Positions 721-20,274 of a DNA stretch of 64,000 nucleotides are shown piece after piece; position 1 is the stretch's first letter; every line of letters begins with the position of its first letter. The position numbers were made by a program, and so were the translations under genes. A model generated the notes under the pieces. The model worked only from the letters and a program-made list of their open reading frames with translations, was not told the origin of the DNA and ran no database searches. The DNA comes from a virus (lineage: Duplodnaviria; Caudoviricetes): positions 160,001-224,000 of IMG/VR virus record IMGVR_UViG_3300011989_000257; one strand, 5' to 3'.

Positions 721-788
721 AGAGGTGTAAGGGCACATTTAACGTAGCGTTTTAGCGTAGTGTCGGTGGTAAGTCCCAAAACACCTTT
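721..788 (+). ncRNA. Candidate structured small RNA unit
   Basis: AGAGGTGT...ACACCTTT closing stem just after the predicted TSS. Confidence 0.45.
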
Positions 789-789
789 A

Positions 790-896
790 GGTAGGATAAA
801 ACAAACCATAGCGAATGGTAAGGTGAGGGAAGTGTAGGAGCGTTGCAGCCAGAGAGCCACTCTCACGTTGGAATACCAAGATTGGGGAAACCTACC
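790..896 (+). ncRNA. Candidate structured ncRNA, family A copy 1
   Basis: GGTAGG/CCTACC closing stem; shares GGATAAAACAA and TACCAAGATTGGGGAAACC with 20118-20200(-). Confidence 0.7.
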
Positions 897-953: not shown

Positions 954-986
954 ATGGGTTGTGTCGTGAGACATGACCCATTTTTT
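954..986 (+). terminator. Intrinsic terminator with GTGA tetraloop
   Basis: ATGGGTTGTGTC-GTGA-GACATGACCCAT followed by a T tract. Confidence 0.85.
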
Positions 987-1043
987 GTATTATTATAGAT
1001 TAAAATATAAATGCCCCTACCTTATTCAGATAGGAGCATAGAT

Positions 1044-1782: not shown

Positions 1783-1971
1783 AATCTAAATCTGTTATTA
1801 ATTGTTGTTTGATGGTGCAAAGATACGAAAAAAAATTGAATTGGCAAAGAGAAACCAGTTTTTTAACATTTAATTAACATAGTTATATCATTTTCTTAAA
1901 AAGTATTAATAGGTTTGGTTATCTCACTGGAATTTCGTATCTTTGCATTACATTAATAAGATATAGTGTAT

Positions 1972-2178
1972 ATGGAAAAGAGAATCAAGTTTCAATATCA
2001 AGTGAAGCAAGTCAAGGGAATGTTCTCCGTGAGCACCATTGAGCGTTACGAGGTGAAAGAACTTATTCACGTTTGCGACCCCAATAAGAGCGACAGAGAG
2101 AATCTTGATGATGCTTTCTCGAAGGCTTGTGACTTGGGCGCTAATCCAAACAAGCAAGTTAGATGGAGTTTTATTTAA
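1972..2178 (+). CDS. Hypothetical protein
   Basis: Downstream of plus-strand promoter 1914-1947. Confidence 0.7.
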   Translation: MEKRIKFQYQVKQVKGMFSVSTIERYEVKELIHVCDPNKSDRENLDDAFSKACDLGANPNKQVRWSFI

Positions 2179-3664: not shown

Positions 3665-4321
3665 TTATGCCCAACATCTTGCCCTTGCCCTTGGTGACAT
3701 ATGCGCACCCTCATTCATGACATCAACGCCCTCGTCAGCAATCTTCTGTAATGTTCCGATTACATCTTCCATTTCCCCAATGGTTTTAAGGCACTTTATA
3801 ACCACTGTGGCAAGTCCAAGTTGACGTCCAGCACCATAAATGGCTTCATGGTCTTTGAAACGCTCACACACACCACTTTCTTCAACACCTTTCATGAGGG
3901 ATTTAATATCCTCCTTCATATCATCGAGTTTCCAAGCCATCTTCTCAACATACTGATAGGCTGCTCTCTCGTTTCTCTTTGCCATCTTCTGAATCTCAGC
4001 AAGCAAAGCATTAAGTTCACCATATTTCACAGAATATGTTGCCATTGGCTTGCTTATTCCCTTATGGGCAAGAATCTCATTGGCTATCTTTCCCCAAGAG
4101 CGATACGCATGGCTCTTATACACTTGGATTGATTTAAGTGTTGTCATTGGTTTCAGCAACTTTTCAATCTGCTCTGCCACCGCACTAATTTCCTTGGTGT
4201 TAGTATCACTTACCTTGGTAGCCTTTTTCTTCTTCTTGGCTTTCTTCTCCTTGCGATAGGTGGCATTAAACTCTGTCATGGTCATTTTAACACCATCAAC
4301 TATGATTGTACTCTCTTCCAT
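3665..4321 (-). CDS. Hypothetical helical, Lys-rich protein
   Basis: 218 aa ORF. Confidence 0.8.
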   Translation of the reverse strand: MEESTIIVDGVKMTMTEFNATYRKEKKAKKKKKATKVSDTNTKEISAVAEQIEKLLKPMTTLKSIQVYKSHAYRSWGKIANEILAHKGISKPMATYSVKYGELNALLAEIQKMAKRNERAAYQYVEKMAWKLDDMKEDIKSLMKGVEESGVCERFKDHEAIYGAGRQLGLATVVIKCLKTIGEMEDVIGTLQKIADEGVDVMNEGAHMSPRARARCWA

Positions 4322-16438: not shown

Positions 16439-16523
16439 TAGGGAAGGTGGGATTCGAACCCAACGAGCCCAGATGGGCATGGCTTTTTAAGAGCCACGTG
16501 TCTACCAGCTGCACCACAACCCC
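16439..16523 (-). tRNA. tRNA-Leu(TAA), type II, with imperfect acceptor and T stems
   Basis: GGGGTTG..TGGTAGACAC, TGGCT-CTTAAAA-AGCCA, long variable arm, GGGTTCGAATCCC. Confidence 0.8.
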
Positions 16524-18842: not shown

Positions 18843-18927
18843 AATCTTTAATGTTTTATTTGTTTTGACAATGCAAAGATACGAAATTTATCCCAATTGA
18901 CCAAATTAAAAGTGTTAAAAAACGCAA

Positions 18928-18957
18928 ATGGGAACTTATCTCACGACAAGTCCCCAT
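18928..18957 (-). terminator. Terminator (GTGA loop) ending the long non-coding transcript
   Basis: ATGGGGACTTGTC-GTGA-GATAAGTTCCCAT-TTGCGTTTTT. Confidence 0.75.
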
Positions 18958-19036
18958 CCAAACAACTAAAAACCTAACAATCTTAAATTATGGAAAACAA
19001 AGAGCGTCTAAACAACGCAAATCGAGAATTTTTGTA

Positions 19037-20032
19037 CCCTATAAAGTGATGAAACTCTCAACTACAAAACGACACGACCGATGGTTAAGTAGCGTATGGC
19101 AACCAAAAAGCAGAATATACGTAATCATCCACTTTCCAATTCCATCATAGGGCATTTAAAAATGTGAGGTGGAACACGTCCGAAATTACATGATGGCAAA
19201 GGCAAGTGCAACTTATTGCATCGCAGTTCGGCATCTCCCATTTGGGGCGCATCGAATCCACCTCACTTGTTTCTCACACCTTTAGTAGCATACTATGACA
19301 ACACCGCAAACGATTAACGTCATAGTCGCTGTGAGTAGGGTTGATTTCACAACTTAATTTGCAGTAATTTAGGGCATGGCAAGCGCATATACTCGGCTAA
19401 ATTGGGTTCGCTCGCCTAACATCGCCCCTCTCTATTAAAAATGGACACCCTATAACTAACACTCCGCATACTTGGTAGTAGAATTGTGCGCACATTACTC
19501 CTACGCAGACATTGTTTCAACTTCGGTATGTCCTAATCGCCCTTGGTAAGTGGTTTAATGGGCCATTCGGCATCGCTCTTGCTGACCTCCGTAGAGGTGG
19601 CTAAGCGTAATGTGTCTCGGAAATGGCGGCTCTTTGGATATTGGTCGCTCATTGACACTTAATTGGCTCGGACGGAACTATTTATGTTCCAAATTCACTT
19701 AACTCCACGGCTTAAGTTCATTCATACGACGGCATTGTAACGTTACACGAACTTTACCCTATCTCCGCCTAATTGGGGTTTTGTAATTATGGTTAAATTT
19801 ACTTTTTATCAGTGTTATATATATATATCATTCCTTAGTTGGGTCGGTCTCTAATCATACTCTATGTGTGCGAGCATAGGGGCAATCTCGCTTTATATGT
19901 TCTCCCCTTAAAATTTATAATCGGCGCAGTAATCTAAAAAAATTATTTTCCTAAACTTAATACCCTTATGAGGGCGGAGGTCTTTCCATTATCTTTCCTC
20001 TTTAGTAAACTTGGGTGCTTACCCCAACTAAG
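19037..20032 (-). ncRNA. ~1-kb structured non-coding transcript (array of RNA domains)
   Basis: Promoter 20043 to terminator 18928 with no ORF >=60 aa; closing stems at 19834-20032 (10 bp), ~19447-19795, 19371-19429, 19273-19335, 19164-19266 (10 bp), 19037-19152. Confidence 0.7.
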
Positions 20033-20117
20033 CGTTTTGTAATGCAAAGGTACGAAATTTTTTTGAACTGACCAAACTTTTTCGGTGTTTTAACTTCGTT
20101 TAACCTTTGAGAAAATT

Positions 20118-20200
20118 AGGTAGGGTTTCCCCAATCTTGGTACTGACACCGCCACTATCACGAGTTGCTGACCATTTGTTGGCTTGTTTTATCCCTACCT
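20118..20200 (-). ncRNA. Candidate structured ncRNA, family A copy 2
   Basis: AGGTAGGG/CCCTACCT stem; homologous to 790-896(+). Confidence 0.7.
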
Positions 20201-20204
20201 AAGA

Positions 20205-20274
20205 AACGGCATCGAGGGCAAGGTGGTAAGCGATTTGCGCTGTATATATGCACTACCCCCAATCTTAAGCCGTT
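20205..20274 (-). ncRNA. Candidate structured RNA unit
   Basis: AACGGC/GCCGTT closing stem; also contains AAGATTGGGG. Confidence 0.4.

Follow-up and report, generated by a model that had tools for sequence, protein, structure and literature searches.

What kind of genetic element can occur twice in the genome of a phage with both of its ends conserved and its middle exchanged? The question is raised by a 64,000-nucleotide (nt) stretch of DNA, hereafter the window, which corresponds to bases 160001-224000 of a 412,514-bp phage record in IMG/VR (IMGVR_UViG_3300011989_000257) that is rated complete. Two short sequences within it, at 789-897 on the plus strand (copy 1) and at 20117-20201 on the minus strand (copy 2), had been described in an initial annotation as a conserved scaffold with a variable middle, and it was proposed that they might encode a protein-bound guide or decoy RNA, or else a ribozyme with a variable peripheral stem. 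Both copies prove to be members of a structured RNA family that we found in no catalogue and that is supported well by covariation and by transcription signals. We suggest, tentatively, that the product is a stable small RNA with a putative protein-binding core and an exchangeable arm.

The stems and the conserved 5' and 3' blocks of the two copies read as first described. Copy 1, whose arm is of type B (model match 94.1 bits, E 1.7e-22; RNAalifold), is composed on the plus strand of a closing stem, P1 (GGTAGG 790-795, CCTACC 891-896), a 5' joiner AUAAAACAA (DNA ATAAAACAA, 796-804), a first hairpin, P2 (ACCA 805-808, TGGT 816-819), a 50-nt arm, P3 (820-869), a further joiner (870-875), a mini-hairpin CCA/UGG (876-878/883-885) and the sequence GGAAA (886-890); its 3' block is the 17-mer TACCAAGATTGGGGAAA at 874-890. 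Copy 2, with an arm of type A (70.7 bits, E 4.3e-16; RNAalifold), presents on the minus strand the P1 strands AGGTAGGG (20200-20193) and CCCTACCT (20125-20118), the same 5' joiner (20192-20184), P2 as GCCA/TGGT (20183-20180/20174-20171), an arm of 30 nt (20170-20141) and the 3' block CCAAGAUUGGGGAAA (DNA CCAAGATTGGGGAAA, 20140-20126). The reported lengthening of the closing stem by one base on both sides is present as an extra G-C pair, and so is the reported change from A-U to G-U in the first hairpin. The two copies have in common an exact 11-mer, GGATAAAACAA, and an exact 19-mer, TACCAAGATTGGGGAAACC. The window contains the 17-mer exactly twice, and the 412,514-bp genome as a whole has no third occurrence; about 0.27 chance matches are expected when three mismatches are allowed, and chance is excluded because the common blocks are collinear and bounded by complementary ends. 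A minus-strand open reading frame (ORF) of 98 amino acids (aa) that runs across copy 1 (678-974) was rejected as coding, since the orthologous loci measure 113 nt versus 99 and 100 nt and such differences of 13-14 nt would shift the frame.

The family was assembled by exact-pattern scans of IMG/VR and of the JGI and ENA metagenomes, with patterns that required ATAAAACAA and CCAAGANTGGGG, and then with a covariance model (R1). This yielded 51 matches, corresponding to 36 distinct sequences, and the scaffold with its exchanged middle holds across all 36 of these homologues. Every match sits on a contig of related megaphages or metagenomes. The complete relatives are G001 (409,537 bp) and G002 (412,435 bp), and the three complete genomes contain one or two copies each: the window's own phage (G000) and G001 both have a convergent pair, about 19.4-19.5 kb apart, and the covariance model finds none beyond these two in the 412-kb genome of G000. 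G002 retains only the homologue of copy 1; its copy 2 locus is without about 270 nt that comprise an upstream module, the element, a promoter and a leader, and a weak match at 359476-359588 of that genome was discarded as it falls in a coding region. No family member was found in the GTDB collection of 185,579 prokaryote species genomes (one per species), where four pattern matches are attributed to chance because they score only about 17-20 bits against the model. A search of GenBank phages with both loci returned just unrelated short matches. Rfam 15, at E up to 10, gave nothing over copy 1 and only a DnaX match of 10.8 bits over copy 2, and a search with eight other arm types, to a limit of E 1, detected only neighbouring transfer RNAs (tRNAs). 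In the literature we found no relevant description of such phage RNAs. Exact core blocks are present even in phages in which a syntenic protein of 68 aa is only 35-43% identical to that of the window, and the whole type B element of L115 equals copy 1 bar one base; this reflects either very strong selection on the whole element, or movement of elements between phages, or both.

The element, some 80-111 nt in length, is modelled as a four-way junction formed by P1, the P2 hairpin, the exchangeable arm P3 and the mini-hairpin of 3 bp. Its parts follow one another in the order P1, AUAAAACAA, P2, P3, GUUGGAACA-CCAAGAUUGGGGAAA, P1' and a run of T residues, and the joiners (AUAAAACAA, AAG or CAG, GUUGGAACA and GGAAA) are long and highly conserved; each element has about 45 conserved unpaired bases. 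Homologues devoid of covariation had been named in advance as evidence against a structured scaffold, and the closing stem does covary among them: six of the seven P1 pairs have changed on both sides (for example, GAGAAGG/CCTTCTC, AGATAGC/GCTATCT, GTAGTGG/CCACTAC and GGGTAGC/GCTACCC). The P1 cells are paired in 97.9% of cases, versus 89.7% in shuffles and 15-56% when the 3' partner is slid by one to three columns. Within P1, G-U pairs outnumber A-C mismatches by 7:1, an excess that fits an RNA read from the strand given here for each element. P2 (ACCA/UGGU, 4 bp, usual loop NAGCGAN) and the mini-hairpin CCA-AGAU-UGG are neither backed nor contradicted by covariation because their pairs never vary. 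RNAalifold, applied separately to type B (eight members) and type A (ten members), recovers P1, P2, a P3 hairpin and the mini-hairpin in both sets, and the arms themselves contain compensatory pairs, with a change from G-C to A-U in type B and, at two pairs, from C-G to U-A in type A. A rod-like alternative, in which UGGU pairs with the 3' ACCA, is indistinguishable from the hairpin fold since all four CCA/UGG segments are invariant. The sequence GUUGGAACACC of the 3' joiner (in copy 1, GUUGGAAUACC at 867-877, plus strand) resembles what we take to be the 3' end of the Bacteroidota 16S ribosomal RNA (rRNA), GCUGGAACACCUCC.

The transcription signals around the element are equally regular. The window contains 44 matches to an extended promoter, TTTG-N18-22-TAnnTTTGC, versus 0.70 expected by chance in the pattern scan, with a consensus of approximately TTTGGTnAnnnCAAAATAATTTCGTATCTTTGC (examples are 673-705 on the plus strand and 18873-18905 and 20044-20076 on the minus strand). 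Presumably this is the Bacteroidota sigma-A promoter form, and this clade of phages of about 410 kb uses Bacteroidota-type host promoters; the consensus mostly precedes one small gene and, therefore, almost every gene has a promoter of its own. The unit of copy 1 is short and free of ORFs: its promoter (673-705, TTTG-N-TAnnTTTGC) is located 84 nt upstream of P1, and after it come a closed-stem module that we call X, the element, a T-run directly after P1' (898-901) and a second, conventional hairpin terminator with the loop GUCGUGAGA (955-987), all on the plus strand. Copy 2 comes after an ORF of 58 aa and another closed-stem module, and it too is followed by a T-run (20112-20115, minus strand); the next promoter (20044-20076, minus strand) starts 42 nt downstream and precedes an ORF-free stretch of about 1.1 kb. 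A run of at least four T within 12 nt of P1' is found in 31 of 34 distinct members, versus 7.6% of random genomic 12-mers. In five members (L071, L081, L098, L105 and the L101 element at 3948), a full promoter ends 5-25 nt before the 9-nt 5' flank of the core, of which P1 is the last seven, and these five also have the T-run after P1', so that they are complete stand-alone units. The unit of L101 (3948-4031) consists of promoter, element, T-run and next promoter, with nothing else, and this is the strongest argument we have that the RNA itself is the product. That the shared blocks might instead be DNA sites that are never transcribed, which the initial annotation had allowed for, looks unlikely, judging from the agreement in orientation between the elements and their flanking promoters and T-runs.

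The conventional terminators of this genome are of a different kind. Those at 955-987 (plus strand) and 18918-18960 (minus strand) have the loop GUCGUGAGA and the flanks GGAUGGG/CCCAUUU in common and differ in their stems, and thus constitute a repeated terminator family; the model of FopS, from Bacteroidetes, gives a weak match to the first of them that is confined to the terminator (21 bits, versus a gathering score of 56). The minus-strand terminator of the gene at 1068-1376 (1003-1035) is a simple hairpin whose stem, CCTATC/GGTAGG, contains the same hexamer as P1.

The middle of the element, which the initial annotation had regarded as variable and unrelated between the copies, is made up of at least 12 discrete arms of 25-58 nt, each type being conserved in sequence across phages. 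Comparison of the members indicates that the arms are not freely varying or hypervariable; rather, they are fixed modules that are shuffled between loci. At the copy 1 locus, with near-identical flanks, arm B is found in G000 and L080, arm C in G001, arm F in G002 and an A-type arm in L112 and L077, and at the locus that follows GCACCTCCCTCACCCCATTTA the arm is E, A', D, G or C. Conversely, a single arm may occupy several places, C being present at three loci and B at five or more. Tandem pairs also occur (A+B in L115, B+I in L091), and in L101 arms D and K are about 400 nt apart. The breakpoints fall at the borders of the arms, which suggests recombination through the conserved core. The arms of copies 1 and 2 do differ, as had been stated, but they are not wholly unrelated: CGUGAUAGUGGC in the arm of copy 2 (20151-20162, minus strand) is complementary at 11 of 12 positions to GCCACUCUCACG in that of copy 1 (855-866, plus strand), with a rough, post hoc chance of about 0.002. 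The phage's own tRNA-Asn (genome 286,350-286,435; ...GUGAUAGUGGUCAGCAC) has in its D-arm the same 10 nt as GUGAUAGUGG in the arm of copy 2 (20151-20160, minus strand), and UGGUCAGCA recurs at the border of P2 and the arm; the rough chance of the tRNA-Asn identity is about 0.06, and it may be a coincidence.

What, then, could such an RNA do? Of the known kinds with which it was compared, none fits. Because of its anatomy alone, we favour, without going so far as to call it probable, a stable small RNA in which the core is a putative protein-binding handle, the arm is a displayed and swappable part and P1 together with the U-tract is the RNA's own terminator. P1 and the U-tract would act as an intrinsic terminator and leave a U-tailed transcript whose 5' and 3' ends pair with each other; the conserved junction would be the docking handle for the putative protein; and the arm would be shown to something else, as a bait, a decoy or an adaptor. 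Recombination via the conserved core would then swap arms among copies and among phages. Among the functions originally proposed, a decoy or protein-bound RNA remains the most plausible. Several considerations weigh against this stable small RNA. The invariance of AUAAAACAA and of CCAAGA-UGGGG is partly a matter of ascertainment because the search patterns demanded them, and near-identical elements in diverged phages could be due to recent transfer and not to long-term selection. The neighbourhood of the element reveals no partner protein, the small basic protein just upstream of copy 2 being non-homologous to its positional counterparts in other relatives and sub-clades. Moreover, a long-range stem around 80-110 nt is an unusual intrinsic terminator. 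A more ambitious proposal, which we regard as possible though doubtful, is that the family is a new, modular class of phage ribonucleoprotein RNAs: a single four-way-junction handle bound by a putative protein would carry any of the at least 12 arms as baits, decoys or adaptors in an RNA conflict between phage and host (tRNA-, rRNA- or defence-related), the arms being shuffled by recombination at the handle.

The main rival, which strikes us as rather unlikely, is that the element is a purely cis-acting 3'-end module, such as an elaborate intrinsic terminator, an insulator, an RNA-stabilising cap or a protein-controlled attenuator, that closes one unit before the next promoter or before a large ORF-free RNA. 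Its location is what such a module requires, as it is always at the end of a unit with the T-run after it, and in 13 distinct members the next promoter is 42-44 nt downstream. In L105, L091, L075 and L115 the element, or elements, stand directly before the large RNA with no promoter between, and G002 is missing copy 2 and the promoter as one block. However, a bare terminator needs no promoter, and the five stand-alone units have one with only the element inside. Furthermore, the conserved unpaired bases and the conserved arms far exceed the needs of termination, and the ordinary terminators of the genome manage with simple hairpins.

In a second alternative, the RNA would act in trans as an antisense or guide RNA, its arm serving as the seed for a phage or host transcript and its core recruiting a chaperone or an effector. 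The exchangeable part is indeed the arm, and arm types differ between otherwise near-identical phages in a manner that resembles immunity-type antisense RNAs; the complementarity between the arms of copies 1 and 2 would also be in keeping with it, and a pair of arms complementary at 11 of 12 positions is seen again in the tandem A+B of L115. By eye, however, the arm pairs of G001 and L006 show none. A blastn-short search of all arms against the 412-kb genome of the phage returned, for its own two arms, no complement as long as 12 nt, so that the guide RNA of the initial annotation gains nothing from the phage's own sequence; the longest match in that genome for the arms of other phages is 14 nt, near chance for a genome of such a size. 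In addition, much of each arm is engaged in a covarying stem, and we consider this alternative improbable.

We give still less credence to a new self-cleaving or processing RNA with the arm as its peripheral stem, which would cut multi-RNA transcripts and, for example, free an adjacent tRNA-like RNA. Conserved unpaired junction bases and a variable peripheral stem are typical of small ribozymes, and in L077 and L112 a tRNA-like gene ends 5 nt ahead of the element, an arrangement that recalls the theta ribozymes of gut phages. This gene, of 93 nt, also stands before module X in G001 and G002 (examples are L121 1053-1145, minus strand; L013 4116-4208, plus strand; L077 approximately 1955-2050, minus strand) and is absent from the window; it has acceptor, D and T arms, is called by ARAGORN as Met (CAT) and has an insert of 29 nt in place of the normal anticodon region. 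The ribozyme foreseen by the initial annotation finds no match, however, among the Rfam ribozyme models, whether for the two copies (E up to 10) or for the further arm types (E up to 1). A fold like that of the hepatitis delta virus (HDV) ribozyme would need a 6-7-nt 3' strand of P1 between the first hairpin and the arm, where there is only AAG or CAG, and the stand-alone units have nothing to process.

Least credible of all is an element that works as DNA and has RNA features only incidentally, be it a site for recombination or transposition that folds as a single strand, in the manner of attC, REP or IS200, or else a small mobile element with inverted repeats: the two copies converge on each other across about 19.4 kb, in the same layout as in G001, the copy 2 locus is polymorphic for presence, near-identical elements lie between unrelated flanks in diverged phages and P1 contains the GTAG that is found in REP heads, but the orientation always agrees with the upstream promoter and the downstream T-run, G-U exceeds A-C 7:1 on the sense strand, the G002 deletion of about 270 nt takes the promoter with it and is not element-precise, tandem same-strand copies occur, the 19-kb segment is never inverted among the three complete genomes and the whole genome encodes no reverse transcriptase (recombinase and transposase genes were not searched for). 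A retron msr-msd RNA was likewise rejected, there being no RVT_1 match in the whole phage genome, as was a repeat-spacer or solitary repeat RNA of clustered regularly interspaced short palindromic repeats (CRISPR), the conserved 5' and 3' blocks not being repeats of each other.

The stable small RNA that we favour would be one of several in its surroundings. The copy 1 unit of the relatives strings together distinct closed-stem RNAs, the 93-nt tRNA-like gene among them. Module X (AGGTGT...ACACCT, 723-786, plus strand), located 5' of copy 1 on the same transcript, has a conserved core, CACAUUUAACGUAGCGUUUAGCGUAGUGUCGGUGRUAAGU, that also precedes the element in G001, G002, L080 and L075 (1640-1690, minus strand) and is present in L121 (985-1045, minus strand); the closing stem of the module varies from phage to phage, being GGCGG/CCGCC in L075 and, in the window, GGG/CCC inside a further AGGUGU/ACACCU stem, and the module is probably a second RNA family. 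The closed-stem module that separates copy 2 from the stop codon of the 58-aa ORF (ACGGC...GCCGU then UUCUU, 20206-20273, minus strand) holds AAGAUUGGGG, which is 10 nt of the element's 3' block; in G001 the closing stem is kept and the interior is different. The ORF-free stretch of about 1.1 kb downstream of copy 2 (18926-20036, minus strand) extends from a consensus promoter to a hairpin terminator, with parts conserved in L075, L091 and G001, and has no Rfam match at E up to 5. At its start is a short ORF, MERPPPS-stop (19966-19989, minus strand), and the pattern of Pro-Pro-Pro, one residue and stop recurs as MERPPPM in G001, MERPPPI in L105 and MQKNKPPPR in L091 but is missing from L075. 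Either a stalling leader peptide or simply the conservation of an RNA helix (CCUCCGCCC) could account for it.

The coding background of the window consists mostly of small genes on the minus strand. Other codes (TAG=Q, table 4, TAA=Q) were tried as a cause of the short ORFs and none was better, the standard code fitting equally well; the region is therefore one of small genes and RNA genes. Rfam, at the gathering threshold, identifies a single match in the window, a tRNA at 16439-16523, and the whole genome has 42 tRNA genes, one of them with the anticodon CUA, and a transfer-messenger RNA gene. The recurring neighbours of the element are the 68-aa protein, which is acidic, and a protein of 186 aa, neither of which has a Pfam assignment; a PHROG search provided no convincing family for the neighbour proteins, the few matches being weak or to families of unknown function (186-aa protein: E 0.001-0.004).

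Giant phages that infect the Bacteroidota of gut and rumen are uncultured, and the non-coding part of their gene content is nearly unexplored. The element is better conserved in sequence than the proteins around it, and its neighbours include tRNA-like RNAs and further RNAs of the closed-stem kind. Should the core prove to be a protein handle and the arms baits or adaptors, a phage would have here a new way of diversifying an RNA tool through the exchange of cassettes; were the element a structured terminator, its design would still be unusual, and its small size suits direct tests.

A comparison with known systems helps to place this design. Like intrinsic terminators, the element has a G+C-rich stem with a T-run immediately behind it (31 of 34 members) and stands last in its transcription unit, ahead of the following promoter, but its "loop" is a conserved structured RNA of 65-95 nt and is, in some copies, the sole content of the unit. 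The HDV-like theta ribozymes are also phage-borne and tRNA-adjacent, with the outermost helix at the 3' terminus and a variable peripheral hairpin; the element has no Rfam HDV-type match, however, and their nested double pseudoknot cannot be drawn for it, as the interval from the first hairpin to the variable arm lacks a 3' strand of P1. The likeness to the tRNA cloverleaf is in plan, with a four-way junction, a 7-bp closing stem, a 4-bp first arm with a loop of 7 nt, a central arm and a short last arm, whereas neither ARAGORN nor Rfam RF00005 calls the element, its joiners are 3-9 nt long and it has no T-loop, D-loop GG or anticodon-loop pattern.

Two further systems bear on the proposed handle and arm. 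The tRNA cluster of the same genome (262,000-300,000) is interspersed with small RNAs of the form GGAAAC-NUA-CAGCAA...GUUUCC then a T-run, which, like the element, consist of a closing stem, a conserved 5' junction, an interchangeable cargo, the closing stem again and the T-run. Their handle is UACAGCAA, as opposed to AUAAAACAA...CCAAGAUUGGGGAAA here; only the copy 2 arm starts with CAGCAAC, its close variants having CAGUUUAAC, and the arms of the element have no match to tRNA models. Finally, the Y RNAs and YrlA (RF02553), which are bound by Ro60 or Rsr, differ in that no Rfam Y RNA model matches the element, whose closing stem covaries freely without the conserved bulged helix of the Ro-binding site and whose conserved bases are in the junction strands. 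The phage genome has no match to TROVE (PF05731), which is present in the control, Bacteroides thetaiotaomicron, so that a host may supply Rsr; PF11443 (DUF2828) is represented by one phage gene (genome 312869-313267), about 130 kb from both copies. Nevertheless, the Y RNAs resemble the element in being small, U-tailed RNAs whose 5' and 3' ends are base-paired, in uniting a conserved docking part with a variable or modular body and in their proximity to tRNA-like RNAs of phages.
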